Shown here one piece after another: positions 7,042 to 61,150 of a stretch of 64,000 bases of DNA (positions within the stretch are counted from its first letter, which is position 1; each line of letters begins with the position of its first letter). The position numbers and the translations under genes are program-made. Location: assembly GCA_963701785.1 (NCBI GenBank), contig CAVPBC010000002.1:2484458-2548457 (forward strand). The letters are read 5' to 3'. This DNA is from an uncultured Bacteroidales bacterium. GTDB lineage: Bacteria > Bacteroidota > Bacteroidia > Bacteroidales > JAGOPY01. A model generated the notes under the pieces. The model had not been told where the DNA came from. It made no database searches and saw only the letters and a list, made by a program, of their open reading frames with translations.

Positions 7042-7078
7042 TTTAATTAAAAATTAAAAATTAAAAATTATAAATTCA
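7042..7078. repeat. Heptamer array (AATTAAA x about 5) filling the whole gap between the cyclase stop and the PhzF-like start
   Basis: tttaattaaaaattaaaaattaaaaattataaattca; the cyclase stop codon (7076-7078) sits in the last degenerate unit. Confidence 0.85.
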
Positions 7079-10828: not shown

Positions 10829-10871
10829 AAATAAAATGCAAAATGAAATGAAAAATGAAAAATGAAAAATG
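10829..10871. repeat. Heptamer array (AAAATGA units, about 6 copies)
   Basis: aaataaaatgcaaaatgaaatgaaaaatgaaaaatgaaaaatg; 20 nt from the tRNA-Arg 3' end. Confidence 0.85.
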
Positions 10872-14986: not shown

Positions 14987-15028
14987 CGATAGGACGATAG
15001 GACGATTGGACGATTTGAAGATTTGATG
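14987..15028. repeat. Octamer array with stepwise drift (CGATAGGA, CGATAGGA, CGATTGGA, CGATTTGA, AGATTTGA)
   Basis: Read directly; starts 9 nt after the stop at 14978 and ends 16 nt before the gmhA ATG. Confidence 0.85.
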
Positions 15029-23132: not shown

Positions 23133-23576
23133 ATGAAATGTTATAAAATTGCATCAATTTTGTGTGTTGTTATTTTAATATTTTCATGTAAGAACAACGC
23201 AGATAATGAGAATGGAGTAAATAATTTAAAAGGCAGTAAATGGATTTTGATAGGCTTTCAGCCACATGATACCCAAGTAGAAGAATTCAAACCTGAAAGC
23301 TTAAGGGAAATGAATATCGAGTTTACTAATGAAAATACAGTTCATGCGATAAGTTCGTGTAATACATTTGATGGTTATTATTCAATTTTGGACCCGGATA
23401 CATTACAGATTTATAGTCTGTACACAACTTTAATAAATTGTGAAAATGACACAATTAGAAATTGGGAAAATAAATATTATAATGAATTAAAAAATGCCGA
23501 GAATTACCAAATTGTTTCAAGTAGTTTAATTATTGAAACGAAATCGAATATTGCTATCATTTTTAAAGCAAATTAA
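23133..23576 (+). CDS. META-domain (HslJ-like) lipoprotein
   Basis: Lipobox VILIFSC; LKGSKWILIGFQ and AISSCNTFDGYY resemble META-domain motifs; visibly AT-rich gene. Confidence 0.55.
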   Translation: MKCYKIASILCVVILIFSCKNNADNENGVNNLKGSKWILIGFQPHDTQVEEFKPESLREMNIEFTNENTVHAISSCNTFDGYYSILDPDTLQIYSLYTTLINCENDTIRNWENKYYNELKNAENYQIVSSSLIIETKSNIAIIFKAN

Positions 23577-23580
23577 ATGA

Positions 23581-23927
23581 TCAACTAAACCTAACGAACA
23601 CGCAGCGCCCAGCCCGGACATTAAATTTAGCTTTCCACGCGGTCGGAAAGACATAATGCCAGGACGCTCTCCGGAGGAGAGCCATATTTATAGCAAGGAC
23701 GGGATAAAAGATAAAAAGCCCCTCCCTTTGATGAGATATCTCGTTGAATATCAGATTCACAGGGAGGGGTTTGGGGAGGGTTAAGCAGTCTCCCTCCCCT
23801 TGATCCCCTCCCATGCCAATTTCAACAGAATAATATATATTATCGTGGGAGGGGAAAATATTTTCTTTATGCCGCCTTTCTACAAATATTTCACTCCTCC
23901 GGAGTTCCGCGAACTGCTGACTACTTA
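23581..23927. repeat. Structured noncoding element: about 30-bp imperfect inverted ends flanking nested GGGAGGGG/CCCCTCCC blocks (MITE-like or structured RNA)
   Basis: 23667-23698 ctctccggaggagagccatatttatagcaagg versus the reverse complement of 23876-23908 (25/30 match by eye). C/G blocks at 23719-27, 23761-80, 23792-812 and 23846-54. Confidence 0.6.
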
Positions 23928-24014: not shown

Positions 24015-26305
24015 ATGCTCAGCAGGTTATATATTCTGGCCCTTACTTTTTACGCTTTCATCAGCTATGGACAGGATCATTCCATCAAAGTCTATTCGGA
24101 TAATCGCCTCGAATACGATTTCCCCTGGGCAGGAGGCATGAATTCGTGCCAGTTCGGCAAGGTGGATATGAATTTAGACGGACTGAAAGACCTGGTCGTG
24201 TTTGACAGGGCCGGTGACCGGATCATGCCTTTCCTGGTCGTCCAATCAGGTAGTAATTTCGAATATAAATATGCCCCTGAATTTGCAGAGAATTTCCCTG
24301 TCCTTTCGCACTGGGCGATTTTTGCAGATTACGACCTCGACGGAAAAGAGGATATCTTCACTTATTCACCCGGGTACGCGGGCTGAAAGTATACCGCAAC
24401 ACCTCGGGAAGTACGCTGGAATTCACCCTGGAAGTTTTTCCATTCCTGACTTCTTTCCAGGGTGGGGGATATGTCAATATTCTCGTAACCTATGCCGATT
24501 ACCCCGCCATTACTGACCTCGACGGGGACGGCGATCTTGATATCCTAACTTTCTGGGGACTGGGCTCATTTGTCGAAAAGCACCGGAATATGTCGATGGA
24601 AAAATACGGGCATGCCGATTCACTGGATTTTGAAAAGACGGAATTTTGCTGGGGATATTTTGCTGAGAGCGAAGAATCGAACGATTTGACGCTGGATACC
24701 TGCCTGAGATGTGGGGATGCGGGGAGGCGGGGAAGCGGGGAGGCGTGGATGCGGGGAGACGGGGAGCGCCATACCGGCTCAACTTTTCTGGTACTTGACT
24801 TAAACGATGATAATCTGTCGGACCTTTTGCTTGGAGATGTGGATTATCCCAACCTGGTTGCGCTGTATAACGGGGGAAGTCCGGATACCGCCCGGATGGT
24901 TTCTTATGACTGGCAATATCCGCCTTACGACAAATCCGTTAACCTGTTTTCAATGCCTGCAGCATTCAATGATGATTTTGACTTCGATGGAATTAAAGAC
25001 CTAATGGTCTCACCTTTTGACCCTAATCCTTTCCTGACGGAAAATTTCAGGAGTGTTTGGCTTTACCATAACGACGGGACCAATAGCGCCCCTCTTTTTC
25101 ATACAAAGTCCCTGTCATTTATACAGGACCGGATGATAGACCTGGGAGCCGGTGCATACCCGGTGTTCTATGATATCGACCAGGATGGCCTGGTGGATTT
25201 GTTTGCCGGCAATTATGGCTATTATGACACCTCTTATTTAGATGAGTTTCTTATCCTTCATACCGAGCAAACCGGTAAGCTGGCTTTTTTTAAGAATACC
25301 GGAACACAGGAAACACCTGCCTTTACATTTGCCGAAAGGGATTTCGCCACAGTATCCGCCCTTGATCTCAGGGGAATTGTGCCTGCTTTCGGTGATTTAG
25401 ATGGAGATGGCGATACGGATATGCTTCTTGGATGTGAAACCGGGCAGATAATTTTATACCTGAATTCCGCAGGAACCGGAGAACCTGTAAACCTGGAATT
25501 TAACCAGTCAGATTACCAGGGGATCGATGTTGGAGCATACAGCACTCCGCAGCTTTTTGATCTTGACAGGGACAACCTGGATGACCTGATCATCGGTGAA
25601 AAGGGAGGTAATCTCAATTATTTCCGAAATACCGGGACATTCCAAAAACCTGCATTTACCCTGGTGACAGACAGCCTGGGGAAAGTGAATGTGACCGATC
25701 CTGCCGTTTCGCTTGACGGGTACAGTGTGCCATTCTTTTTCAGGGATGCGGCCGAACATACTCATTTGCTGGTTGGTTCGGAACAGGGAGTTATTTATTA
25801 TTTTACCGGGATTGACGGTAACCTGGCTGGAAAATTCACTGAATCCGACACCCTCGCCGGTCTCATCGGTTTGGAGGAATTCAATGCAGACCGCGGATAC
25901 CGGACGGCCCCGGCTTTATTTGACCTTGATCAGAACGGCCACCCGGATTTAATTGCAGGAAATTTCTCAGGCGGAATGGAATACTTTGCCAGTTCTGAAA
26001 ATCCTCCTGTCGCCGGCCTGGATGACATGGATTTATTAATTCCTGATGTTGTAATTTACCCGGTACCGGCGCCAGGTCAATTTAATATAAGTATGACCGA
26101 TCCGGGTAACTGGCGTATTGCAGGTGTGAAGATCCTGACAATGGATGGCCGGGTAATTCATTCTTATGTTTATGATAAAATGCTTCAATTAGCAATAAAC
26201 ATCAACCTCGTTTCCAAAGGTTTATATGTTTGCCAGGTTCTTTTAAAAGAGATGAATACAATGCAAACCCATTCCTGTCAAAGTAAGTTAGTCCTGGTTT
26301 TTTAA
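24015..26305 (+). CDS. FG-GAP/VCBS-repeat protein with T9SS C-terminal sorting domain, one frame break near 24380
   Basis: Signal MLSRLYILALTFYAFISYGQ; repeated Ca-binding DxDxDG loops (DLDGDGDLD, DIDQDGLVD, DLDGDGDTD, DLDRDNLDD, DLDQNGHPD); C-terminus VIYPVPAPGQFNISM...LYVCQVLLKE is CTD-like. Confidence 0.75.
24708..24770. repeat. G-rich octamer array (GAKGCGGG x about 7) inside the FG-GAP CDS; six GGGG tracts
   Basis: gatgtggg gatgcggg gaggcggg gaagcggg gaggcgtg gatgcggg gagacggg gagcgcc; encodes CGDAGRRGSGEAWMRGDGER. Confidence 0.85.
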
Positions 26306-34380: not shown

Positions 34381-34525
34381 AATTGTGAGATTTAATTAGT
34401 TATCCGAAATTAACTCATAATCAAAGCAAAATATATAGGACAATCTACCAATCGCATGTTTGGATTGATTGTTCCATTGTTTCAACGTTCCAATGTCCCG
34501 GTTTCCAGATTGCATAAGCTGAATG

Positions 34526-34594
34526 CCGACCGCCGACCGCTGACCGCCGACCGCTGACCGCCGACCTCCGACCTCTGACCTCCGACCCCCGACC
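34526..34594. repeat. GC-rich heptamer array (CCGACCG drifting to CCGACCT/CCGACCC, about 10 copies)
   Basis: ccgaccgccgaccgctgaccgccgaccgctgaccgccgacctccgacctctgacctccgacccccgacc, in the divergent intergenic region between 34380 and 34689. Confidence 0.9.
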
Positions 34595-39538: not shown

Positions 39539-42500
39539 CTAATCGCTGTAAGAAATCTGCATCAGTGAAACTTCAAAATCCCCGCCTTCAGGATAGAAGG
39601 TGATCCAGTTATTATCATCGCTGAACCATTTGTACTGTGCACTGATCCTCACCACAAACTCAAAAAGGTCTTCCCCGGCAGGGACTTTTATCACCACACC
39701 GCCATTTTTTGTCTGGTCCTTGCCAAAACTGATGATGAGCTTATATTCATCTTTGGAAACATTCCGCGCCCTGAAGAATATGTAATTGCTTTTACGGTCT
39801 TTGACAGGAACGGGGATGAAATCAAATTTATGCTGTGTGTTGTTTGAGATAAGTAATGGTTCTTTATTGATCTGGACAATAGATCGTTCTGTAAGCAGTT
39901 TTAAAATGCGGCGGACCATTTCTTTGGGATATTCCTCTTCGGGCTTTAATAAGATAGAAGCCCTGTATGATTCAATGGCATTGTCATAAATTTTCGAAGC
40001 AAAGAATTTATCGGCATCGGCTATTGACTTATCATATTCTTCCTGGATCAACTGCCTTTTTTTCATAATTTGCTCATTGACCAGTTTCAGCTTATCCAGG
40101 GGATAAAGTTCTTCAGGCTTGAGTTCCAGTGCCCGGTCATATTGCAGTTTGGCCATTTCATAGTCTTGCTGATCAAAGTAATTGTCAGCTTTGGATATGG
40201 TTATCTGGTAGGTCTGATCGCGCTGTGCTTCCAGGGCATCCAGGGTACGGTTAATTTCGATTACCTGTTTATTTGGAAATTCCTCGGCAGGTTTGATGGT
40301 AAGGGCTTCCTGGTATGCTGCCCTGGCTTCTTCATATTTTTCATTTTTCATAAAATCATCCGCACTGGCAATAATTAAATTATATTGCTCATCGATTTCC
40401 TTTTGTTTCCTGATCTCTTCTTGCCGGGTTTCTTCCTGCCTGGCAATTTCTGCGATTGCAACATTTATTTCAGCAATCTTTCCCTGCGGGTAACTTTCCC
40501 CGGCCTTCAGGCCGAGGGCTGCTTGATAACCTGCCATAGCTTTCTGGTAATCCTTTGCCTGGAAAGCTAAATCGGCACCTGAGATGGCATCTCCGTATTG
40601 CTTATCGAGGGCTTCTTTAGCAGCGATCTCGCCGAGGATGCCATTGATCTCGTCGATCTTTCCCTGCGGGTAACTTTCCCCGGCCTTCAGGCCGAGGGCT
40701 GATTGATAACCTGCCATGGCTTTCTGGTAATCCTTTGCCTGGAAAGCTAAGTCGGCAGCTGAGATGGCATCTCCGTATTGCTTATCGAGGGCTTCTTTAG
40801 CAGCAATATCACCCAGGATGCCATTGATCTCGTCGATCTTTCCCTGCGGATAACTTTCCCCGGCCTTCAGGCCGAGGGCAGCTTGATAACCTGCCAAAGC
40901 TTTCTGGTAATCCTTTGCCTGGAAAGCTAAATCAGCAGCTGAGATGGCATCTCCATATTGCTTATCGAGGGCTTCTTTAGCAGCAATCTCGCCGAGGATG
41001 CCATTGATCTCGTCGATCTTTCCCTGCGGGTAACTTTCCCCGGTCTTTAGACCGAGGGCCGCTTGGTAACCTGCCATTGCTTTCTGGTAATCCTTTGCCT
41101 GGAAAGCTAAATCAGCACCTGAGATGGCATCTCCGTATTGCTTATCGAGGGCTTCTTTAGCAGCGATATCGCCGAGGATGCCATTGATCTCGTCGATCTT
41201 TCCCTGCGGGTAACTTTCTCCGGTCTTTAGGCCGAGGGCTGATTGATAACCTGCCAGGGCTTTCTGGTAATCCTTTGCCTGGAAAGCCAAATCGGCAGCT
41301 GAGATGGCATCTCCGTATTGCTTATCGAGGGCTTCTTTAGCAGCGATATCGCCGAGGATGCCATTGATCTCGTCGATCTTTCCCTGCGGGTAACTTTCCC
41401 CGGTCTTTAGGCCGAGGGCCGCTTGGTAACCTGCCATGGCCTTCTGGTAATCCTTTGCCTGGAAAGCTAAGTCGGCACTTGAGATGGCATCTCCGTATTG
41501 CTTATCGAGGGCTTCCTTAGCAGCGATATCACCGAAAATGCCATTGATCTCGTCGATCTTTCCCTGCGGATAACTTTCCCCGGCCTTCAATCCGAGGGCC
41601 GCTTGATAACCTGCCAGGGCCTTCTGGTAATCCTTTGCCTGGAAAGCTAAGTCGGCAATTGAGATGGCATCTCCATATTGCTTATCGAGTGCTTCATTAG
41701 CTGCGATTTCTCCGAGGATACCATTGATCTCGTCGATCTTTCTTTGCGCGTAACTTTCCCCGGCCTTCAGGCCGAGGGCAACTTGATAACCTGCTAAAGC
41801 TTCCTGGTAATTTTTGGATTGCATGGCCAGGTCTGCAACCGAGATGGCATCCAGATATTGGGTATTTTTAACTTCCAGAGCTGCCTGTTCAACGGAATCA
41901 TTATCGATTTCGAAAACCTTTTCCGCCTGGTAAGCGGCTATACCTTCCTGGTATTCCTGCTTGGTGATGGCATTCTCCTCCCCGGCAATCTCATCCCGGT
42001 TTTTACCGCCACTTGCCTGTTTACTGGCATTTGTTGCAAGAATAGTTTCGATCTCCTGGATCTTCTGCTGGGGATATTTCTCTTCAGGATTGATCCCGGC
42101 GGCATTGCGGAATTCAATCAGTGCAGCCTCATAGTCCCTGTCATACATTAGCTGATCGGCATTTGTGACAGCTTTTACATATTTATCCCGGATCCCTAAA
42201 ATTTCGTTGATCATAGTGATCTGGTCAAGCGGATATTGCTCCTTCGGGAATAATGCACTTGCAGACCGGTATTGCTCGCGGGCTTCCACATATTCATCGG
42301 AGAAAAACAGGCGGTCGGCCCCTGTGATAAGGTTATTATATACTTCTCTATTGCCGGCCAGGTTCGATAATATCGTATTGATCTCATCAACCTTAACTTT
42401 CGGATACTGTTCCAGCGATTTGATCCCTATCGACCTGTTGTATTCATCTCGTGCTTCTTCGTAACGTTCTTCCTTAAAAAGGTTATCTGCCCGGGCAATA

Positions 42501-43636
42501 GCCTGTGTATATGCATCTTCCTGTGTCTTTCTCAGGCTGAGCGCTACATTGATATCGTTGATCCGCTGTTTTGCGTAATCTTCTTCAGGTTTAAAATGCA
42601 GGGCATTCTTATATTCGATCATCGCCCGTTCATAGTCCTGCTCGCTGAACAGCTTGTCGGCAAGGGCAATGGTAACTTCATAACTTGACCTGTTGGATTT
42701 GGAAATGTCCATCAGGGCAATGTCTATTTTTTCAAGCATGCTTTTCGGATATTCATCAGCAGGCTTGATAGACTGGGCCTGCAGGTATTTCTCCTGCGCC
42801 AGCTCAAATTCTTTCGATATATAATAATTATCCGCTTCTTCAATGATGGAGGCATAAGAATCCCAGGCAATTTTGAGATCCTGCGCCTCTGCAAGTTTCT
42901 GTTTCGGCAGATTTTCATCAGGCTTGAGCAGAATGGCCGCTTCCAGCAACCTGATGGCATCGTCATATTTATTTCTCGAAATAGCAAAATCGGCATCCTG
43001 AAGTAAGGATTCATAATTACTCGTTGCTGTATTACTTGCCGTTAATAATGTTTGGACCTGAATTGTTTTCTCTTTCGGGTATGCTTCTACAGGTTTAAGT
43101 TTGGCTGCGTTTTGATATTCAGCCAGTGCATTTTCCAGTTGTAAACCTTTCAGGAACAAATCGCCATTAATGATGCTCTTCTGGTATTTTTCCTCCAGGA
43201 GCCTGTTATCTTCCTGGGTCCTGGTTATCTCCTGCACCCGTCCGGTAGCATAGGCATCGTTTGGAATTATCGTCAATGCTTCCTGGTAAACCTTCAAAGC
43301 AGCATCAAGATCTTTCTTATCATACAGGTCATCTGCAAGCTGGACCTTCTGGGTGTAAAGGCTGTTTTGATACATCTGGACCTTGATCATGTCAAGGGAT
43401 TGCTGCAGGCGGTCCTTTGGATATTGATCTTCAGGCGCAAGCCGGACAGCAATCTGGTAAGAAGCTTTGGCGTTGATGTAATCCCCTTTTGTAAAGTAAG
43501 CGTCGGCCATTTCGATGGTCTTCCTGTATTCTTCAGGATTGTCCTGGGACTGTCCTGTAAAGGCAAAAAAAGCCAGCAAGATCAGCGATAAGAGCACCGT
43601 CTTATGTCGATAGGTCATATGTAGTTTTAGTAGCAT
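39539..43636 (-). CDS. Giant TPR-like repeat protein (about 20 units of a roughly 60-aa motif ending E.YP..KI.EIN..L) with a distinct about 130-aa C-terminal domain
   Basis: Signal/TM TVLLSLILLAFFAFTGQSQ (start may be Met at 43618). Repeat motif recurs along the protein; eight central units are near-identical. C-terminal domain of unknown family. Confidence 0.7.
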   Translation of the reverse strand: MLLKLHMTYRHKTVLLSLILLAFFAFTGQSQDNPEEYRKTIEMADAYFTKGDYINAKASYQIAVRLAPEDQYPKDRLQQSLDMIKVQMYQNSLYTQKVQLADDLYDKKDLDAALKVYQEALTIIPNDAYATGRVQEITRTQEDNRLLEEKYQKSIINGDLFLKGLQLENALAEYQNAAKLKPVEAYPKEKTIQVQTLLTASNTATSNYESLLQDADFAISRNKYDDAIRLLEAAILLKPDENLPKQKLAEAQDLKIAWDSYASIIEEADNYYISKEFELAQEKYLQAQSIKPADEYPKSMLEKIDIALMDISKSNRSSYEVTIALADKLFSEQDYERAMIEYKNALHFKPEEDYAKQRINDINVALSLRKTQEDAYTQAIARADNLFKEERYEEARDEYNRSIGIKSLEQYPKVKVDEINTILSNLAGNREVYNNLITGADRLFFSDEYVEAREQYRSASALFPKEQYPLDQITMINEILGIRDKYVKAVTNADQLMYDRDYEAALIEFRNAAGINPEEKYPQQKIQEIETILATNASKQASGGKNRDEIAGEENAITKQEYQEGIAAYQAEKVFEIDNDSVEQAALEVKNTQYLDAISVADLAMQSKNYQEALAGYQVALGLKAGESYAQRKIDEINGILGEIAANEALDKQYGDAISIADLAFQAKDYQKALAGYQAALGLKAGESYPQGKIDEINGIFGDIAAKEALDKQYGDAISSADLAFQAKDYQKAMAGYQAALGLKTGESYPQGKIDEINGILGDIAAKEALDKQYGDAISAADLAFQAKDYQKALAGYQSALGLKTGESYPQGKIDEINGILGDIAAKEALDKQYGDAISGADLAFQAKDYQKAMAGYQAALGLKTGESYPQGKIDEINGILGEIAAKEALDKQYGDAISAADLAFQAKDYQKALAGYQAALGLKAGESYPQGKIDEINGILGDIAAKEALDKQYGDAISAADLAFQAKDYQKAMAGYQSALGLKAGESYPQGKIDEINGILGEIAAKEALDKQYGDAISGADLAFQAKDYQKAMAGYQAALGLKAGESYPQGKIAEINVAIAEIARQEETRQEEIRKQKEIDEQYNLIIASADDFMKNEKYEEARAAYQEALTIKPAEEFPNKQVIEINRTLDALEAQRDQTYQITISKADNYFDQQDYEMAKLQYDRALELKPEELYPLDKLKLVNEQIMKKRQLIQEEYDKSIADADKFFASKIYDNAIESYRASILLKPEEEYPKEMVRRILKLLTERSIVQINKEPLLISNNTQHKFDFIPVPVKDRKSNYIFFRARNVSKDEYKLIISFGKDQTKNGGVVIKVPAGEDLFEFVVRISAQYKWFSDDNNWITFYPEGGDFEVSLMQISYSD
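40470..41870. repeat. Eight in-phase 180-bp tandem repeats (60-aa units) inside the TPR-like gene
   Basis: The motif cggccttcaggccgagggc recurs at 40501, 40681, 40861, 41041, 41221, 41401, 41581 and 41761. One adjacent pair I compared by eye had 12 mismatches in 180. Confidence 0.95.
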
Positions 43637-48024: not shown

Positions 48025-48067
48025 CATTTCACATTGAGCATTGAACTCAGAACTCAGAACTCAGAAC
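48024..48067. repeat. Heptamer array with drift (ACATTTC, ACATTGA, GCATTGA, ACTCAGA x3) filling the convergent pcm/dnaB gap
   Basis: acatttcacattgagcattgaactcagaactcagaactcagaac; begins at the last base of the pcm stop and contains the dnaB stop (48061-48063). Confidence 0.85.
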
Positions 48068-49561
48068 GGCATACTATCCTCATCATCCAGATCCTTCATA
48101 TCATTCATCCTGGATGGCACAGTGCGGAGTTTTTCAGGCAGAAGTCCATCGCCAATCCCTGTATCAGTTTCAATGGCATCGTAATCGGAGAATCGGGCAT
48201 AGCGTGCGATAAATTTCAGGTTTCGTTCACCGAGCGGGCCATTCCTGTGCTTGGCAACGCTGATGACGGCAAGGCCATTGGTAGGTGTTCCATCTTCCAT
48301 CTCGTCGATCTGGTAATATTCCGGACGGTAAATAAAGAGCACAAGGTCGGCATCCTGTTCGATGGCGCCTGATTCACGAAGGTCGGAAAGAATAGGCTTT
48401 TTAGAACCGCCGCGGGTTTCAACGGCACGGCTTAACTGCGAAAGTGCCAGTACCGGGATATCCAGTTCCTTGGCGAGGCTTTTCAACGAACGCGAGATGT
48501 TGCTGATCTCCTGCTCACGGTTTCCCTGCCGGTCGTAATTCCCGGTCATCAGCTGCAGGTAGTCGACAAAGACCATTTCGATATTATGCTGGGCTTTGAG
48601 CCGGCGGCATTTTGCCCGGAGTTCGAAGATCGATAGGGCAGGGGTGTCGTCGATGAAGATCGGCGCGTCGATCAGGCGGCTGATCTTTGAATTGAGCTGT
48701 TCCCATTCGTAATCGGCCAGGTCACCCTTCCTCAGTTTTTCAGCGGGCAGTCCCGATTCCGCAGAGATCAGACGGGTAACCAGCTGTACTGATGACATTT
48801 CAAGGGAAAATACAGCTACCGGCTTTGTGAAAATCCACCGCCATATTCCTGGCCATGGTAAGGGCAAAAGCCGTTTTTCCCATACCCGGACGTGAGGCAA
48901 GGATGATCAGGTCGGAGCGCTGCCAGCCTGATGTCATCCGGTCGATTTCCGTAAAGCCGGATGGCACCCCGCGAAGCTCTGTCTGCTGGTTTTTGGCCGC
49001 TTCGATATAATGCAGTGCTTCCTTGACCAGGGTATTCATATCCATCGTGTTACGCCTGAGGTTGCTGTCGCTGACCGTGAACAGCCCCTGCTCGGCTTTG
49101 TCAAGCATATCAAAGACATCCATGGTGTCTTCGAACGAATCTTTGATGATTTCGGAAGAAATCCTGATCAGTTCCCGCTGGATGTATTTCTGGATGATGA
49201 TATGGGCGTGGTATTCGACATTGGCTGATGAAGCCACACGGTTGGTGAGCTGTGTAATATAATAAGCCCCGCCGGCCAGTTCAAGGTCGCCGGTCTTTTT
49301 GAGTTCACTGGTTACAGTAAGGATGTCAACCGGTTCAGAGCGACCGAATAAACTGATGATGGCGCTATAAATAGTCTTATGCTGGTCTTTATAAAAAACA
49401 TCAGGTTTAAGCATATCAATGACGGAAGTCAGGGCATCTTTTTCGAGCATGATTGCACCCAGGACGGCCTCCTCCAGGTCAACTGCCTGAGGCTGCACTT
49501 TCCCGTGCTCAAACGCGTTATCCTGAGAAGTGTCTTCTTCTCTCAAATCCTTTCCTGGCAA
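48061..49561 (-). CDS. dnaB: Replicative DNA helicase DnaB, one frame break near 48823
   Basis: N-terminal PQAVDLEEAVLGAIMLE; Walker A LIILASRPGMGKTAFAL; then after an extra base (aaaGccgg) PVAVFSLEMSSVQLVTRLIS...VDYLQLM...ALSQLSRAVE. Confidence 0.9.
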
Positions 49562-49742
49562 AGCCTTTTGACTTATCTGACGGGTTGTATCGGGTGTTAT
49601 TTTCCATGCCTCAAATATATGAAATACTGACCCGGATTATCTCCCGTAACCCCTTAACTTATCACCAAAATTGATGTTAATAAGTCGTGAAAAAAAAGAA
49701 AAAAACATGTATTACCGGCACATCTGATACTAACTAAGTCAT

Positions 49743-49791
49743 GACTAATGACCAATGACCAATGACTAATGACCAATGACTAATAACCAAT
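49743..49791. repeat. Heptamer array GACTAAT/GACCAAT x7
   Basis: gactaatgaccaatgaccaatgactaatgaccaatgactaataaccaat; encodes the last codons and the stop (49780-49782) of the minus-strand gene. Confidence 0.9.
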
Positions 49792-50868
49792 CACCTCCCC
49801 ATCCAGGGTCACGTATCCCTTCATCAGATTTGCCGTCAGGCAGGAGTGAACAGGCAGGACACCAAGTATGTCCCCGATCTTGATTTCTTCGATGAACTCC
49901 CTTGGGGCGCGCACGATACCATGTTCCTGCGAGAGATTGGCCAGGTAGGCCCCCGCGATCGGGCGTGACCATTCTTTTTCGGAAATGCGCACTATATAGC
50001 CGAACAGGTGCTCCCCGTTACTCTTATATAGGAAATCTTTTGAGAAATGAATAGCCCCCCCGTAAATCGTAAGTTCGTTACGCAGCAGGCTTTTCCCGAC
50101 AACCGGGCAGGCTACCGCAACAGCGATCTGATCCAGTGTGCATGATCCGAGCGAGAATTGCATCAGGTCATAGAAAACAAAATTGCCGGGCCTGATCTCA
50201 TCAACGGCTGAGAAATCTTCAACAAGGCTGCAACCTGGCGTATCCCCGACGGATATGGTCAGTTCAGGCCAGGCCTCCAGGTAACGCTCCTTGAGGTAGG
50301 TCATTTTTTCGACAGTATCTTTATAAATATCGAGGATCTCCTCCTGGCTGTCGGCCGAATAAGTATGCCCGGAATGGGTAAGGAAGCCTTTGAAATTCAA
50401 CCGGTTAGAACTGGCAAGAAATTCAAGCATCCGGTCAATTTCATTCAGGTCTTTCCAGAGTACGCCTGAACGGTGATGGCCGGTGTCAATTTCTATATAA
50501 AAACCGACTTTGAAGGTTAAGCCATTCTCGACCGATTGCAGTATCGTCGAAGTATCTCCAAGAATATTCAGGTTAAGTTCCGCTGCCAGCTCGCTGATCT
50601 GTCCCAACTCGGCAAGGTTAACCGGGAATGCGATCGTGATATCGCGCCAGCCATAAGCGGAAAAAAATTTGGCCATACTGACTGAAGAAACCGTAATACT
50701 GTGAATGCCAAGCTTACGGAACCAGTTACCGACGAATGCAGAATTATGAGTCTTGAAATGCGGCCTGAAATGCGTATCGCTTTTTTTGGCCTTTTCGTAC
50801 ATCCTGGAAATATTCGATAAACACTGCTCTTTATTCAGAAGAAGTGTTGGTTTTGTTATACTGATCAT
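49780..50868 (-). CDS. D-threonine aldolase / D-serine dehydratase-like (alanine racemase N-terminal fold) PLP enzyme
   Basis: Start chosen at MISITKPTLLLNKEQ; RPHFKTHNS contains the PLP-lysine context of the DSD1/D-TA family; about 362 aa. Confidence 0.65.
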   Translation of the reverse strand: MISITKPTLLLNKEQCLSNISRMYEKAKKSDTHFRPHFKTHNSAFVGNWFRKLGIHSITVSSVSMAKFFSAYGWRDITIAFPVNLAELGQISELAAELNLNILGDTSTILQSVENGLTFKVGFYIEIDTGHHRSGVLWKDLNEIDRMLEFLASSNRLNFKGFLTHSGHTYSADSQEEILDIYKDTVEKMTYLKERYLEAWPELTISVGDTPGCSLVEDFSAVDEIRPGNFVFYDLMQFSLGSCTLDQIAVAVACPVVGKSLLRNELTIYGGAIHFSKDFLYKSNGEHLFGYIVRISEKEWSRPIAGAYLANLSQEHGIVRAPREFIEEIKIGDILGVLPVHSCLTANLMKGYVTLDGEVIGY

Positions 50869-55881: not shown

Positions 55882-58322
55882 TTAGAATATTTTCGGATAT
55901 TTTTCCGGGTTGATATCATGCATCAGATTATAAACAGAATCAAAGACATCTTCTGCATTCGGGTTGCTGAAGTAATCGCCGTCGGTGCTGTAAGCCGGAC
56001 GGTGTGCTTTTGCCGTCAGCGTTTTAGGCTGGGCATCAAGGTGATAGTAACCGTGCTGTTCTTCGAGGACCTTCTGCATCATATAGGCAGTTGCCCCCCC
56101 GGGGACGTCTTCATCAAAGAAAAGGACCTTGTTCGTCTTTTTGAGAGATTCTGCGATGAAGTGGTCCAGGTCGAAGGGAAGTAAGTGATTGCACATCGAT
56201 GATCTCGACGTCGATACCAAAATCGAGGAGTTGCGCTGCAGCTTCCTGTGCGATCCTGACACAGGCGCCATAGGTTACGATCGTGATATCGTTACCTTTT
56301 TTGATGATCTCCGGTTTTCCCAGCGGAATGGTGTATTCGCCTATGTTGGTAGGCATGGGTTCCCGCAGCCTGTAAGCGTTTAGCGGTTCGATGATAAGCG
56401 CGGGTTCATCCGAACGGATGATGGTGTTGTAAAACCCTGCTGCCTGTGTCATGTTTCTTGGCACCAAAACGTGGACGCCACGGATGGAGTTGACGACCAT
56501 GCTGAGGGCAGAACCGGAATGCCAGATCCCTTCCAGCCTGTGACCTCGTGTCGAGATGATCATAGGCGCTTTTTGCCCGCCGCGGGTGCGGTATTGCAGC
56601 GTGGCCAGGTCGTCGCTGATCAGCTGGAGACCGTAGAGAAGGTAATCGAAATACTGGATTTCGGCAATGGGCCTCAGGCCACGCATGGCCAAACCGATCC
56701 CCTGCCCGATGATGGTCGCTTCGCGTATACCCGTATCAGCAACCCGCAATTCACCGTATTTTTTCTGCAGGCCTTCCAGCGTCTGGTTTACCCCGCCGAT
56801 CCTGCCGACATCCTCACCGAATACCAGGGTCTCCGGGAAATGCTCCAGGATATAATCGAAATTGTCGCGCAGGATCTCCCTCCCGGGAACCAGGTGCTGC
56901 TCCTTGCCGTAAGCTGCTTTGACCTCCTTCACCTGCAGGGCATTGTGAGCCGATTCGCTGTAAAGATGGGAGCTGTAATTCTCCTCATTCTGCTTCATGG
57001 CGATGTCGCGCCAGGCCATCACATTCTTTTTAAGAGAGTTCTGGGGATTGCTGCAGGAATCACAGATCAGCCGGAGGATCTTCTTGCCTGACGACATGAT
57101 ATCTTTCCAGACCGGTTCCCCGACAACGCGCAGCTCGTCTTTAATGGCATTGATCCTTTCCGTTTTGGCGCAATTGCAGGTACTGATATCCGCCATCCGG
57201 AGAAATTCGTCACGTTGTTTGCGCATCGGTCCCAGGAAATGGTCCCATGCCGTTTTGCGCGCTTCCCTTGCCTTTTCTGCAGCTTCCGATTCAATGGCAT
57301 CAAGTTCTCCTGCAGTGGCGATCTTTTCAGCCATGATCCATTCCCGCATTTTCCGGATACCGTCGAATTCTTCTTCCCAGGCCAGCCTTTCCGGTGATTT
57401 GTACCTTTCGTGCGAACCGGAAGTGCTGTGGCCCTGTGGTTGGGTGCATTCTTCCACATGAAAGATGACAGGGATATGTTCGGCGCGGCAACGGGCGATG
57501 CCTTCTGAATATAGCCTGGCACAGGCCGGCATAATCCCAGCCTTTGACATTGTATATAAGGTAGCCGTTGCCCTTATTATCCAGCTCGAAACCCCGAAGG
57601 ATCTCTGAAATGCTTTCCTTGGTGGTCTGGAATTTCTTGCTGACCGATATGCCCCACCCGTCATCCCATATCGAAATAGCCATGGGGACTTTCAATACCC
57701 CGGCCGCATTGATCGTTTCGAAAAAATGCCCTTCGGATGTGCTGGCATCGCCGATCGTACCAAAAGCCACCTCATTGCCTTTTTGAGAAAGTTTAGAAAG
57801 ATGTTCAAGCCCGGCAACATTTCTGAATATTTTAGAAGCAAGGGCTAAACCCAATAATCTTGGCATTTGTCCGGCTGTAGGGGAGATGTCGGCAGATGAA
57901 TTCTTCTGCTTCATCAGGTCTTTCCATTCACCCTTTTCATCGAGGCTGCGCGTGGCGAAATGATTGTTCATGACACGGCCGGCAGTTTGCGGGTTGAAGG
58001 AAATATCCGTATCGCCGTATAACTGGGCAAAAAACTCTTCCGGCGACATCATCCCGGCGGCAAGCATAAATGTCTGGTCACGGTAATAGCCCGAACGCCA
58101 GTCGCCTTCTCGGAAAACCTTTGCCATGGCCAGCTGTGGGATCTCTTTGCCATCCCCGAAAATGCCAAACTTGGCCTTTCCGCCCAGTACTTCGCGCCGG
58201 CCGATAAGGCTCAATTGGCGGCTTAAATTGGCGGTATGATAATCGCGTAAGACTTCTTCTTTATCAAAAGATAACCTGCTTTCCTGCCCTGAATTTTTCT
58301 TATTAACCGTATCCTGCCTCAT
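55882..58322 (-). CDS. Fused E1 alpha/beta 2-oxoacid (branched-chain type) dehydrogenase component, two frame breaks (about 57515 and 56190)
   Basis: Alpha part: [28 protein letters not shown] (TPP motif). Linker [16 protein letters not shown]. Beta part: [46 protein letters not shown]. Three ORF pieces are colinear. Confidence 0.85.
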
Positions 58323-59423: not shown

Positions 59424-59460
59424 TCTATTTCAACATTCAACATTCAACATTCAACATTAT
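59424..59460. repeat. Heptamer array (CAACATT x4 plus degenerate flanks) abutting the PspC-domain gene stop
   Basis: tctatttcaacattcaacattcaacattcaacattat; the stop codon 59457-59459 overlaps the last unit. Confidence 0.9.
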
Positions 59461-61040
59461 TTTCTTACAAGCCCCTCATTCGTCATGATGAACAACGTCC
59501 CGATCTTTTCACGGCGTGAAATATTTTTATGATATCCCATGAAAGGATGAAGATGGTCATCAAGACTTACAGCAATTCCTTCAGGAAGCTGCACCTCAAC
59601 GCGTGCTTCCTGTTTTCTCCATTTATCATCTTCTGGCACGACGAAACTGTCGGACAACAAAAGGGTGTCGTTTTTCATCTGCCAGTCATAGTTTATTCTC
59701 TCAGCTCTCTCCGTAGCCTCGTCTACAAATGCTCCCCTGGCCGCTGTAACAATTATCATCCGTGCCAGGCTGTCTTTACTGGGCTTGAATTTTAGCAGTG
59801 GAATACCGTAAAGCACGTTTTTATCATTGGTAACAGCCGTTCTCATTTCCGGGAAATAGAATACCCCGGACCTCTCCCATTCGAAATCTTCAGGGAGACT
59901 GCGGTCTACTTTGACATGTAATGTATCATGACTGATGACCTGCAAAATTGATTCCCTGCTGAATTCTCCGGGCACCCGAAATGAGTTGGCAACTTTAAAC
60001 CCGAATACCAGCGTGATAACCAGGGCGCAGAGCCAGATTATGCCAGCTATCCCGTTGATGAATTTTGCCCGCGGAAGGTTAAAGATAAGCCGGATACCGG
60101 CCCAAAGCATCATAAGCAAGGGTATCCCCGCAAGAACCATCATGCCTGTGGCAAAGGTGCGTAAATCGGCATCATTGCCAAAAATCCTCTCTGTGACTGA
60201 ATAAAGCGGGAATGCCTGCAGGCCGGCATCTTCCATCATTGCAACTACCGGGAAGCGGAATAATATCGACAGGTAAGCTATTGTTAAGGCAATACCCACC
60301 AGCAGGATCAAAATCCCCACGAAAATAAGCAGGATTCTCAGCAGCACTCTCCCAACTTCACCGAGACTATCGAGGAACTGGTCCCGATGATTGCTTTTAA
60401 ATTCCTCTTTCTGTGTCCGGTAGGTTGCCTTTGCCTTCGATGTGAAGTCGCTGATCTTATTTTTAATCTGATGCACCTCCTCACCTATTGATTTCTCGAT
60501 ATTGGAAATGTTGACCGGTTCTCCTTTCATTTCGAGCCTTTCGGCAGTAGTGCGTGCTTCCGGGACAACCAGCCAGAGGATCAGGTATACCAATACTCCG
60601 AACCCGGATATCAGAATGGAAATAATGAAAATGACCCTTACCCAAACCGGGTCCATGTTGAAGTAGGCACCCAGGCCGCTGCAAACCCCTCCGATCACTT
60701 TCCTTTCGGGATCCCGATAAAGCCTTTTCGGCATGCTGGCATAGGAGGGCTCATTCCCGCTTCCGGCGGATTCATCATCCATGGCAAAATCAGCCGGCTG
60801 ACCCAATATGGCAATCACTTCAGCGATGTCATCAATGGTAATTACTTCTTTACTGCCTGAGATCTTTTTTTGCAGGAGCTCGGCTATCCTGGCTTCAACA
60901 TCCGAGATCACTTCCTCTTTTCCTTCAAAGCCCCTGAAATGAGATTTGATGGCTTCAAGATAACGGTGAAGTTTTTCATAAGCATCCTCTTCAATATGGA
61001 AGACGAACCCGCTGATGCTGATTGTTAAGGTCTTTTTCAT
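59457..61040 (-). CDS. PspC-domain membrane protein (527 aa)
   Basis: RLYRDPERKVIGGVCSGLGAYFNMDPVWVRVIFIISILISGFGVLVYLILWLVVP is the PspC domain; further TM helices and a C-terminal extracytoplasmic region. Confidence 0.85.
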   Translation of the reverse strand: MKKTLTISISGFVFHIEEDAYEKLHRYLEAIKSHFRGFEGKEEVISDVEARIAELLQKKISGSKEVITIDDIAEVIAILGQPADFAMDDESAGSGNEPSYASMPKRLYRDPERKVIGGVCSGLGAYFNMDPVWVRVIFIISILISGFGVLVYLILWLVVPEARTTAERLEMKGEPVNISNIEKSIGEEVHQIKNKISDFTSKAKATYRTQKEEFKSNHRDQFLDSLGEVGRVLLRILLIFVGILILLVGIALTIAYLSILFRFPVVAMMEDAGLQAFPLYSVTERIFGNDADLRTFATGMMVLAGIPLLMMLWAGIRLIFNLPRAKFINGIAGIIWLCALVITLVFGFKVANSFRVPGEFSRESILQVISHDTLHVKVDRSLPEDFEWERSGVFYFPEMRTAVTNDKNVLYGIPLLKFKPSKDSLARMIIVTAARGAFVDEATERAERINYDWQMKNDTLLLSDSFVVPEDDKWRKQEARVEVQLPEGIAVSLDDHLHPFMGYHKNISRREKIGTLFIMTNEGLVRK

Positions 61041-61150
61041 TATATTGATATATTGTTAAATTGTTAGATTGTTATATTGTTCCAGTGTTCGTCTTCCACG
61101 TCCCATCAGTCTCCCAGTCTTCCAGTCTTACAGTCGTTACAGTCGTAGCG
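61041..61150. repeat. About 14-unit octamer array that morphs from TATATTGT to CAGTCTTC/CAGTCGTT, bridging the PadR stop and the PspC start
   Basis: tatattga tatattgt taaattgt tagattgt tatattgt tccagtgt tcgtcttc cacgtccc atcagtct cccagtct tccagtct tacagtcg ttacagtcg tagcggtc. Confidence 0.8.

Follow-up and report, generated by a model that had tools for sequence, protein, structure and literature searches.

Microsatellites with units of 7-8 nt are known in some bacteria and are regarded as essentially intergenic, and non-triplet repeats inside genes are usually taken for phase-variation switches of pathogens. In a 64,000-nucleotide stretch of DNA from an uncultured Bacteroidales bacterium (the window) an array of G-rich octamers lies inside a gene for a T9SS-secreted FG-GAP protein. 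This raises the question of whether the array is a switch, a functional G-quadruplex (G4), the source of a selected peptide, an artefact of the assembly, or a repeat that is merely tolerated where it lies.

Results

An octamer array within a T9SS cargo gene

The array is located about 30% into its host gene, which is split in the record:

24015..24383, plus strand: 5' part of the FG-GAP/T9SS gene in frame 0, with a signal-peptide-like start (MLSRLYILALTF...) and an FG-GAP_3 match
24380..26305, plus strand: 3' part of the gene in frame 2, 641 codons, with β-propeller blades and the T9SS C-terminal sorting domain
24708..24770, plus strand: degenerate octamer array, seven GAnGCGGG-type units and a partial eighth, sense strand G-rich, peptide CGDAGRRGSGEAWMRGDGE
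26054..26257, plus strand: T9SS C-terminal sorting domain (Por_Secre_tail), residues 559-626 of the 641-aa translation

The letters of 24708-24770 are GATGTGGG GATGCGGG GAGGCGGG GAAGCGGG GAGGCGTG GATGCGGG GAGACGGG GAGCGCC, i.e. the seven 8-bp units listed in the initial annotation, and TRF agrees, calling period 8 with 6.8 copies and 82% matches at 24713-24766 (score 73) and, as an alternative, period 16 (x3.3, 86%); scores for the array range from 73 to 85. At an offset of 8, 38 of 46 positions match within the array, as compared to a maximum of 26 across 20 shuffles. By TRF and shuffles it is a long SSR, i.e. a 5-11 nt unit repeated head-to-tail beyond chance. It is degenerate: neighbouring units always differ, and perfect register extends over no more than 7 nt (offset 8), 11 nt (offset 16) or 12 nt (offset 32); its perfect-unit counterpart is (GGGGAGGC)7. 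The octamer unit was found nowhere else in the 64-kb window of this 2.89-Mb genome. The array encodes CGDAGRRGSGEAWMRGDGER in the frame of the FG-GAP_3 and T9SS-tail gene (ORF 24590-26305, local translation ...LRCGDAGRRGSGEAWMRGDGERHTGS...), and the segment that had been noted as odd and Gly/Arg-rich is indeed a Gly/Arg/Trp peptide, which results because the 8-nt unit is read through three frames.

The host protein was likewise assigned correctly: FG-GAP_3 (E-value 2e-21) and Por_Secre_tail (7e-7) are both present, with Pfam bit scores of 76.6 for PF13517 (cut-off 26.9), 37.2 for PF01839 (22.1) and 29.8 for PF18962 (27). The gene combines FG-GAP-type repeats with a C-terminal Por_Secre_tail and thus qualifies as an FG-GAP/VCBS T9SS cargo gene. 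The AlphaFold2 model and PDB matches agree on a propeller fold; a Foldseek search of the PDB with the model gave only generic propellers at low TM scores and was uninformative for the loop that carries the array.

The frame-0 part of the gene stops at a TGA that results from a 1-nt deficit beside a GGG run at ~24380-24384, where orthologues read YAG-L/M-KVYRN with one extra base. The protein on deposit (P0001, 569 aa) has its start at 24590. Indel errors are also found elsewhere in the source assembly, e.g. DnaB is split at 48800-48900 and an E1/transketolase-like gene lies in three pieces. As DnaB and other housekeeping genes of the window are split alike, the frameshift at ~24380 is unlikely to be a biological OFF state. 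Individual G-run lengths are not guaranteed in such a record; the net reading frame runs unbroken through the array.

The array lies in a permissive linker

Two conserved anchors, which share one frame, delimit the region that contains the array:

24692..24703, plus strand: upstream anchor LDTC, D and C invariant among homologues, left edge of the hypervariable linker
24767..24787, plus strand: downstream anchor RHTGSTF, invariant, right edge of the hypervariable linker

In an alignment of ~130 homologues the insert lies between the invariant residues D228/C230 and R252-H-T-G-S, and both its length and its sequence are hypervariable, i.e. the site is permissive. In the AlphaFold2 model the insert corresponds to residues 109-130 of the 641-aa ORF, within a coil (94-133) that has a pLDDT of ~25-31 and β-strands on both sides. 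The model suggests that the linker is a disordered, insertion-tolerant surface loop, its neutrality being read only from this low-confidence region and the sequence variability. In three protein pairs at ~88-93% identity the insert substitution rate is 2-3 times that of the rest of the protein; in one of these pairs, P0053/P0136, the linker is non-repetitive.

Orthologous arrays occupy the same codon in related species

The relatives come from MAGs that bear the label Bacteroidales or Lentimicrobiaceae. In most of those with at least 57% identity the same codon is occupied by an orthologous array of G-rich 8-mers (GGRRGCRK); a 7-mer array specific to the lineage generally comes next, and the two together are always in frame, whereas more distant relatives (<57%) have a plain, non-repetitive linker of 9-22 aa in which periodicity is essentially absent. 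Alignment of homologues, the check proposed in the initial annotation, identifies the segment as an expansion relative to this non-repetitive linker, and instead of homologues encoding the same peptide without periodic DNA, which the annotation had named as counter-evidence, the opposite was observed.

Among ten close orthologues for which DNA was compared, nine are periodic at the linker site and all are in frame. Eight of the ten combine a proximal G-rich 8-mer array with a distal 7-mer array, and heptamer units in close orthologues include GAACTGC, CAACTGC, GACCGCC, ACCTGGA and CAACGGC; L003 has a 7-mer array alone and L090 a different insert. The inserts of L001 and L086 contain 24-nt higher-order duplications, and perfect heptamer tracts of four to six copies are found in the linker of relatives, L088 having (GAACTGC)5. 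In several orthologues long 8-mer arrays also lie just upstream of the start codon, e.g. AATCCCCC x9.5 just upstream of the ORF in L088, with the G-rich strand being antisense. A metagenome scan with the single repaired protein, back-translated patterns being too specific, yielded only three distant loci.

At the protein level, periodicity at lag 7 or lag 8 appears in 27 of the 42 cluster representatives whose identity is at least 57%, and most of the non-periodic ones keep EAW.HGG/EAG.QGG remnants. The peptides EAWGHGG, EAWRHGG, EAGRRGS and EAGKQGG recur across many species, and the peptides of the distal arrays are unrelated between lineages (TANCELR, PTADRRP, TWNLEPG). Linker length ranges from 10 to 55 aa across the clade, with P0033, P0035 and P0038 being almost insert-free (10-12 aa). 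As judged from these sequences, the array is old and vertically inherited, because dozens of species-level relatives have orthologous arrays at that codon.

The initial annotation had regarded the array as an intergenic array family that had invaded a coding sequence. The window does contain ~16 other 7/8-nt arrays (~0.25 per kb), nearly all intergenic, so that the array belongs to a size class common in this genome. Each of the others has a different, mostly AT-rich unit, a type that would create stop codons inside genes, and the likeness is one of unit size, not of sequence. A recent invasion is contradicted both by the uniqueness of the unit in the window and by the age of the orthologous arrays. 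One intergenic array (34525-34594, GCCGACC x10) shares its unit with the in-gene distal array of L001. An Rfam scan of the whole window gave three tRNAs only and nothing at the array or the upstream spacer.

G4 potential is strong in this genome and variable among orthologues

The array contains the following G4 elements:

24713..24740, plus strand: core canonical G4 motif GGGG-N4-GGGG-N4-GGGG-N4-GGGG (regex scan), with further GGGG at 24753 and 24761
Predicted G4-forming stretch of the array, as DNA or RNA: GGGGAUGCGGGGAGGCGGGGAAGCGGGG

The GGGG tracts start at 24713, 24721, 24729, 24737, 24753 and 24761 and are separated by loops of 4, 4, 4, 12 and 4 nt, i.e. the count of six tracts with mostly 4-nt loops in the initial annotation holds. 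Given the 130 GGGG runs in the 64 kb, a cluster of six in 52 nt is expected ~1.3e-5 times per window, and no second cluster was found in the window. Both strands of the window contain only four canonical G4 motifs (G3+, loops of up to 7 nt), among which that of the array is the sole one with four GGGG tracts and 4-nt loops. When ViennaRNA is run with its G-quadruplex option, a 4-layer G4 is predicted at the array and the MFE is -37.3 kcal/mol, as compared to -14.8 kcal/mol without the option. The array has the make-up of a G4-forming SSR, i.e. at least four G-tracts of at least 3 G, short loops and a 6-9 nt unit, but in the 64-kb window its unit is not dispersed across many, mainly intergenic sites as in such repeats.

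The sense strand is G-rich in the proximal array of all close orthologues. Nevertheless, a strong G4 is predicted in only 3 of 11 orthologous inserts (window, L086 and L003), the predicted gain being at most 4 kcal/mol in L001, L002, L084, L085 and L089 and absent in L087, L088 and L090. Thus, the description as a textbook G4 applies to the motif and to the RNA fold favoured in silico, but the capacity is not conserved, since the strong prediction is limited to these three inserts while the array persists. Programmed frameshifting at the G4 was discarded as an explanation, as both flanks of the array share one frame.

Array length changes in frame

Simulation of the reading frame shows that gain or loss of one or two units leads to a stop 10-13 codons past the array, whereas a change by three units keeps the frame, as had been anticipated. 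This very change is found in a relative: P0131 and P0133, from two strains that are 99.7% identical over 3.8 kb, differ as proteins only by 8 aa. Their DNA, compared over 3780 bp, shows 11 mismatches and one gap, which is 24 nt (three octamers) long and lies inside the array. P0026 and P0127 differ by a concerted unit replacement in the array. Of seven protein pairs with at least 99% identity, six agree in array length and the seventh differs by the in-frame 24 nt; the exact P0002 protein is present on nine contigs. No close relative of the strain of the window is present in the databases, the next protein being 71% identical.

The frame is intact in all 11 inserts with DNA (window and ten orthologues) and in 4 of 4 loci found by tblastn independently of gene calls (window, L001, L002 and L003). 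Fragments from the N- and C-terminal sides, the former sought with the N-terminal 233 aa as query, included no clean unit-sized frameshift that would mark an OFF allele; the many truncated ORFs from the N-terminal search are mostly contig-end fragments or carry 1-nt frameshifts far from the array. A frame change within the distal heptamer array of L094/P0156 was rejected as an OFF allele, as nearly every neighbouring gene is split and the 1-nt irregularities of that array (CCAACTGG; CTC-GTCAT vs CTCCGTCAT) indicate sequencing error.

Discussion

We consider it probable that the array is a slippage-driven repeat which a permissive loop tolerates and whose frame is maintained by selection, with its G4 potential being incidental. 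It would then be a degenerate, vertically inherited long-unit microsatellite (8 nt, GGRRGCRK) within a conserved gene for a T9SS-secreted FG-GAP protein, placed in a putatively disordered, insertion-tolerant surface linker that is bounded by the invariant LDTC and RHTGSTF. Replication slippage may have created and renewed it, in a Bacteroidales lineage unusually prone to 7-8 nt tandem arrays. Since 8 nt is not divisible by three, translation runs through each frame in turn and gives an 8-aa periodic Gly/Glu/Ala/Arg/Trp peptide, and only stop-free, G/C-rich units would survive inside the gene. Selection would let through net frame-preserving changes only, e.g. three units (24 nt), and near-neutrality would hold for the remaining variation of the loop. 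The G4 potential in this genome would be a by-product of the G-rich unit and not a conserved functional element. Persistence of the array at one codon over 57-71% protein identity exceeds that of a decaying neutral repeat, and it could reflect selection for the repeat, for its mutability or for the peptide.

The initial annotation had interpreted the array as a phase-variation switch, i.e. a slipped-strand contingency locus in which adding or losing one or two octamers (heptamers in relatives) reversibly turns the secreted propeller OFF, the array being kept for its mutability. The non-triplet unit in a coding sequence and the early stop after one- or two-unit changes fit this idea, and so do a product that, as T9SS cargo, is surface-exposed or secreted, the demonstrated length change in P0131/P0133, the perfect heptamer tracts in relatives, the arrays ahead of the start codon and the persistence across many species. 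Moreover, as a 24-nt change has arisen where the sequences diverge by 0.3%, slips by a single unit, which shift the frame, should take place as well, and OFF variants must arise. Yet we regard a switch as unlikely: the window has no long, near-perfect tract but degenerate units whose perfect register at offset 8 does not exceed 7 nt, near-identical strains mostly agree in array length, no OFF alleles were found beside the ON alleles in the 11 inserts with DNA or in the fragment search, the frame change in L094/P0156 is explained by an error-ridden assembly, and the array lies ~30% into the gene, whereas phase-variable SSRs are enriched near the N-terminus (PMC3315296). A related and rather improbable scheme is that the linker is a maintained dual-array mutability module of an environmental Bacteroidales clade. 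Each 8-mer unit would shift the frame by +2 and each 7-mer unit by +1 (modulo 3), with both arrays open in three frames, so that a one-unit slip that turns the protein OFF might be offset by a second slip in the nearby partner array, within a few codons (7+8=15 nt), slippage possibly being helped by a G4 on the G-rich strand; the copy in the window might then represent a degenerate state that has lost its 7-mer partner. If this scheme were true, it would amount to SSR-based phase variation in free-living, non-pathogenic bacteria.

Selection could instead act on the peptide, if the loop needs a flexible Gly/Arg/Glu/Trp-rich spacer of the EAW-HGG type, e.g. for ligand or metal contact or for blade spacing, so that the DNA periodicity would reflect nothing but how the spacer was built. 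The recurrent motifs and a linker kept at 10-55 aa throughout the clade would agree with this, but each of these motifs is the exact three-frame product of the shared 8-nt unit, and the unrelated distal peptides, the almost insert-free proteins, the faster substitution in the insert and the predicted disorder all weigh against it, making a selected peptide doubtful. Even less probable in our view is a functional G4 that acts on the sense strand, i.e. in non-template DNA and mRNA, and pauses transcription or translation, e.g. for domain folding, secretion coupling or expression tuning. The canonical motif has two spare G-runs, the 4-layer RNA G4 adds ~20 kcal/mol of predicted stability, G-richness of the sense strand is shared by all close orthologues, and G4s in ORFs are able to stall ribosomes according to literature cited in PMC4692102. 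On the other hand, the strong G4 is confined to 3 of 11 inserts although the array is conserved, the downstream sequence stays in frame 0 and leaves no frameshift signal to serve, and G-run lengths are uncertain in this error-prone record. The same errors, i.e. the frameshifts in essential genes (DnaB, E1/transketolase-like) and in the FG-GAP gene itself at ~24380, might suggest that the array or its copy number was made by noisy long-read assembly. This is hardly credible: arrays of this type occupy that codon in many assemblies made independently from other samples and on other sequencing platforms, the frame is unbroken across the array, and the errors typical of this record are 1-nt indels rather than sequence with an 8-nt period.

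The array is translated, non-triplet and, as predicted, G4-capable, its position is conserved across dozens of uncultured Bacteroidales species, and in one strain pair an orthologous array has changed by a frame-preserving step of three units. The locus may serve as a natural system for studying how selection filters the products of slippage, whether bacterial ORFs tolerate G4s on their sense strand and whether SSR switching is used by environmental bacteria. Annotators should note that peptide segments of this kind derive from repeats and that indel errors are present in this genome record.

SSRs with 5-11 nt units, above all heptamers, are abundant in some free-living bacteria, some of them being G4-capable and most being non-coding (PMC4692102; PMC4679880). 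The array belongs to the same 7-8 nt class as the long SSRs of Mrazek et al. 2007 and the heptamers of cyanobacteria, Beggiatoaceae and Bacteroidetes (STRR, TAACTGA), which, as summarised in PMC4679880, share with it modest copy numbers of 3-10, abundance in particular free-living lineages and polymerase slippage as proposed origin. The same summary leads one to expect units that are multiples of three inside genes, whereas here non-triplet units are kept within a gene, in frame and long-term, as an 8-mer/7-mer pair.

The G4-forming SSRs of Rehm et al. 2015 (GGGNATC in Xanthomonas, GGGGA(C/T)T in Nostoc; PMC4692102) resemble the array in having a G-rich 7-8 nt unit with ~4-nt loops, four consecutive G-tracts being enough for a G4 (PMC4692102), and in a host genome that is rich in arrays of 7-8 nt units. 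An arrangement described for them, in which the G-rich strand is antisense and directly precedes an ORF, is also seen at the orthologous locus L088. However, those repeats constitute one family genome-wide, strongly non-coding and under-represented on the coding strand of ORFs (PMC4692102), and they form G4s in vitro, whereas the unit studied here has no second site in the window, is found mid-gene on the sense strand, is translated and orthologous across species, and its G4 is an in-silico prediction.

With the SSR contingency loci of host-adapted pathogens (e.g. tetra-, penta- and heptanucleotide tracts in surface genes of Haemophilus and Neisseria; PMC2651432, PMC11868660) the array shares a non-triplet repeat in the gene of a surface or secreted protein, the truncation that gain or loss of a unit would cause and, in a relative, copy number variation between strains. 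Contingency tracts, however, are long and perfect, differ among almost all isolates, are often OFF in genomes and cluster near the 5' end, whereas this array has degenerate units, seldom differs between near-identical strains, has only been found ON and is located 30% into the gene. The modelled host protein resembles propellers of the integrin-alpha/CRTAC1/BBS type and the T9SS component PorZ, and it matches the FG-GAP/VCBS T9SS cargo families (PF13517, PF01839, PF18962) above or near their thresholds. Nucleotide-periodic inserts are not a known trait of these families, but the host gene described here contains one.

Results

The array is a real, statistically secure and G4-capable octamer microsatellite, which is translated as part of a conserved T9SS cargo protein, in a loop predicted to be disordered. 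Re-reading the sequence recovered the units exactly as in the initial annotation, and its six GGGG tracts with mostly 4-nt loops were counted again, giving loops of 4, 4, 4, 12, and 4 nt.

Octamer array and GGGG runs
24708-24770: GATGTGGG, GATGCGGG, GAGGCGGG, GAAGCGGG, GAGGCGTG, GATGCGGG, GAGACGGG; then GAGCGCC
24713, 24721, 24729, 24737, 24753, 24761: starts of the six GGGG runs

TRF reports period 8 at 24713-24766 (6.8 copies, 82% matches) and, in a second call, period 16 (3.3 copies, 86%). Period-8 self-matches (38/46) exceed those of all shuffles (maximum 26), and the chance expectation for such a cluster, given 130 GGGG runs in the window (45% G+C), is ~1e-5. The array is the window's sole G4 motif of four GGGG runs with 4-nt loops, and for its mRNA the ViennaRNA G-quadruplex energy model predicts a four-layer G4 (-37.3 kcal/mol vs -14.8 kcal/mol without G4).

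The array lies in frame within a gene carrying FG-GAP_3, FG-GAP, and Por_Secre_tail (T9SS) domains. The gene is split in the record, where the deposited protein, P0001 (569 aa), is encoded on a 2.89-Mb contig. At the split, orthologues read YAG(L/M)KVYRN, with one extra base beside a GGG run as compared to the window. As two further genes of the window are also broken, namely an E1/transketolase-like gene and DnaB, whose Pfam DnaB_C positions 1-49 and 49-255 fall on separate ORFs that overlap, the split is most likely an assembly error.

Frameshift-split genes
24380-24384, +: FG-GAP gene, two ORFs
24015-24383, +: its 5' part, frame 0, ends ...SPGYAG*
from 24380, +: its 3' part, frame 2, begins LKVYRN...
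48061-49561, -: DnaB, two ORFs
55882-58322, -: E1/transketolase-like gene, three pieces

The split housekeeping genes point to erroneous indels in the source assembly, apparently built from long reads, and exact homopolymer lengths in the window thus call for caution.

An AlphaFold2 model of the 641-aa ORF (42-sequence alignment, mean pLDDT 73) has the insert in coil (residues 94-133, pLDDT ~25-31) between propeller β-strands, the blades 3' of it exceeding pLDDT 90; PDB matches are generic FG-GAP-type propellers (integrin alpha, CRTAC1, BBS2/7, PorZ). According to this model the array sits in a disordered, permissive loop.

The repaired 763-aa protein, used as query, has thousands of homologues (top identity 71%). 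In a 34-sequence alignment the array residues (~231-251) lie between the invariant D228/C230 (LDTC) and R252-H-T-G-S and form the internal stretch of greatest length variability. Among 133 proteins, 42 cluster representatives reach ≥57% identity; 7- or 8-aa periodicity is seen in 27 of these and most of the other 15 retain array remnants, whereas homologues below 57% have a plain linker of 9-22 aa. Hence, the segment is an expansion relative to distant linkers, but close relatives carry arrays too.

Orthologue DNA was obtained for ten loci (L001-L003 by genome scan, L084-L090 by exact protein look-up). A proximal 8-mer array with G-rich sense strand (GGAGGCAT, GGGGAGGC, GGGGAAGC, GGGGGCAT) is present at the linker site in eight. 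The distal 7-mer array 3' of it, absent from the window's linker, has a lineage-specific, often perfect unit (x4-6; GAACTGC, CAACTGC, CAACGGC, GACCGCC, ACCTGGA). L003 carries a GGGCATA heptamer (x11), and L001 and L086 contain 24-nt (three-unit) higher-order duplications. Insert length is divisible by 3 nt in every orthologue with DNA. The same peptide encoded by non-periodic DNA, envisaged initially as a counter-argument, was not what we found: the recurrent motifs EAWGHGG, EAGRRGS, TANCELR, PTADRRP, and TWNLEPG are array units read in three successive frames. One insert differs:

L090 5592-5729 (P0014): unlike the array; VILSEAKDL/AEAKDLP, VILSEAKDL encoded twice, DNA GTCATCCTGAGCGAAGCGAAGGATCTGCC...

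P0003 has an insert of this type at the linker position. It resembles the widespread hairpin-type repeat giving 'ILSEAKD/SLRSG' pseudo-peptides; if so, the loop tolerates other small repeats, too.

The window's array is thus orthologous to those of many species. This distribution argues for an old, vertically inherited array, and the homogenisation of units within lineages for its repeated renewal.

Within 90% clusters, P0131 and P0133 match throughout their 768 residues save for an 8-aa indel within the array; their DNA (L092/L093 vs L091) shows 11 mismatches in 3780 bp and one 24-nt gap in the array, i.e. three octamers. Array units changed in concert between P0026 and P0127 (91.6% identical), and in three pairs (~88-93% identity) the insert substitution rate is 2-3x that found elsewhere in the protein; the linker of one such pair (P0053/P0136) is non-repetitive. 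Thus, the array slips and frame-preserving products survive. P0019 and P0122 (orthologue of L001; 784 aa) differ solely by M228R, C234W, and E245A, in or beside the array, which suggests raised local point mutation, unit-to-unit conversion, or sequencing error in G-rich tracts. Searching N-terminal fragments for OFF alleles yielded a within-array frame change in P0156/L094 only, rejected as nearly all genes on that contig are split and the array shows single-base irregularities.

The window is unusually dense in 7/8-nt arrays, with ~16 more (0.25 per kb), nearly all intergenic, mostly AT-rich and each with its own unit.

Examples of 7/8-nt arrays
564-840; 7045-7076; 10829-10871; 14987-15026; 34525-34594; 48043-48067; 49741-49795; 59429-59458; 61040-61144

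Several adjoin gene ends or tRNA genes (621-932), and the unit at 34525-34594 (GCCGACC x10) is that of the in-gene distal array of L001. Orthologue loci also contain 7/8-nt arrays, several directly 5' of the FG-GAP start codon.

8-mer arrays 5' of the FG-GAP start, short spacer
L086 5049-5126: AAATCGCC x9.8
L088 4910-4985: AATCCCCC x9.5
L090 4803-4858: GTCACCCA x7
L002 5941-5975: ACCATACC x4.4

Their sense strand is C-rich, placing the G-rich strand antisense, 5' of the ORF.

Two further elements of the window were noted.

23660-23910, +: spacer element, 251 nt, between META-domain gene (23133-23576) and FG-GAP start (24015)
40476-41811, -: 180-bp tandem repeat, 7.4 copies, 92% identity, in ORF 39539-43636 (1365 aa), coding a 60-aa repeat protein

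A 30-nt inverted repeat (23669-23698/23875-23904) closes the spacer element, which contains three hairpins based on CCCCTCCC/GGGAGGGG (RNA MFE -111.8 kcal/mol vs -69.7±5.2 for shuffles, z = -8.1) and holds two of the window's three other canonical G4 motifs (23762-23780, +; 23792-23812, -). Rfam gave no match to the element, and a second copy was found neither in the window nor in the 90 loci compared. Orthologues lack both the element and the META gene; in them, a sigma-54 response-regulator gene directly abuts the FG-GAP gene. Possible identities of the element are a structured ncRNA and a MITE-like insertion.

Discussion

We consider it reasonably probable that the array is best explained as a slippage-driven, long-lived repeat, which the permissive linker would tolerate and which purifying selection would keep in frame. 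The proposed invasion of the gene by an intergenic array family holds as to unit-size class, but the in-gene and intergenic arrays differ in sequence, and an old, orthologous array speaks against recent invasion. Genes can keep only G/C-rich units stop-free in all three frames.

The slipped-strand switch suggested initially is permitted by the architecture: in simulation, gaining or losing one or two units cuts the protein short within 13 codons. Array length did change between the near-identical P0131 and P0133; nothing observed, however, points to use of such a switch. At ≥99% identity, array length is equal in all six remaining sets of two or three proteins, the P0002 protein is found unchanged on nine contigs, and the window and L001-L003 (tblastn, independent of gene calls) are all in frame. 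Moreover, the window has no adjacent identical units (longest perfect register 7 nt, offset 8), and we regard phase variation as unlikely. Selection for the peptide itself is distinctly improbable, EAWGHGG, TANCELR and the like being repeat units in three frames. The G4 of the window's array may well form, but a strong G4 (gain ≥10 kcal/mol) is predicted for only three of 11 inserts (window, L086, L003), the other eight gaining ≤4 kcal/mol or nothing; G-richness of the proximal array is conserved, G4 competence is not. We regard the window's G4 as incidental to this allele, and a functional G4 as very unlikely. Although three frameshift-split genes might point to an assembly artefact, both array flanks stay in one frame despite the record's indels, so that this is hardly credible.

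SSRs of 5-11 nt, most commonly heptamers, are known from some free-living bacteria, and G4-capable heptamer arrays of Xanthomonas and Nostoc are under-represented on the ORF coding strand (PMC4692102, PMC4679880, PMC3315296). The arrays upstream of the FG-GAP gene in L086, L088, L090, and L002 have the placement reported for those G4-type SSRs (PMC4692102). Taken together, long-unit, G4-type bacterial SSRs are known already; what is unusual here is an array that is coding, non-triplet, and conserved in position across species.
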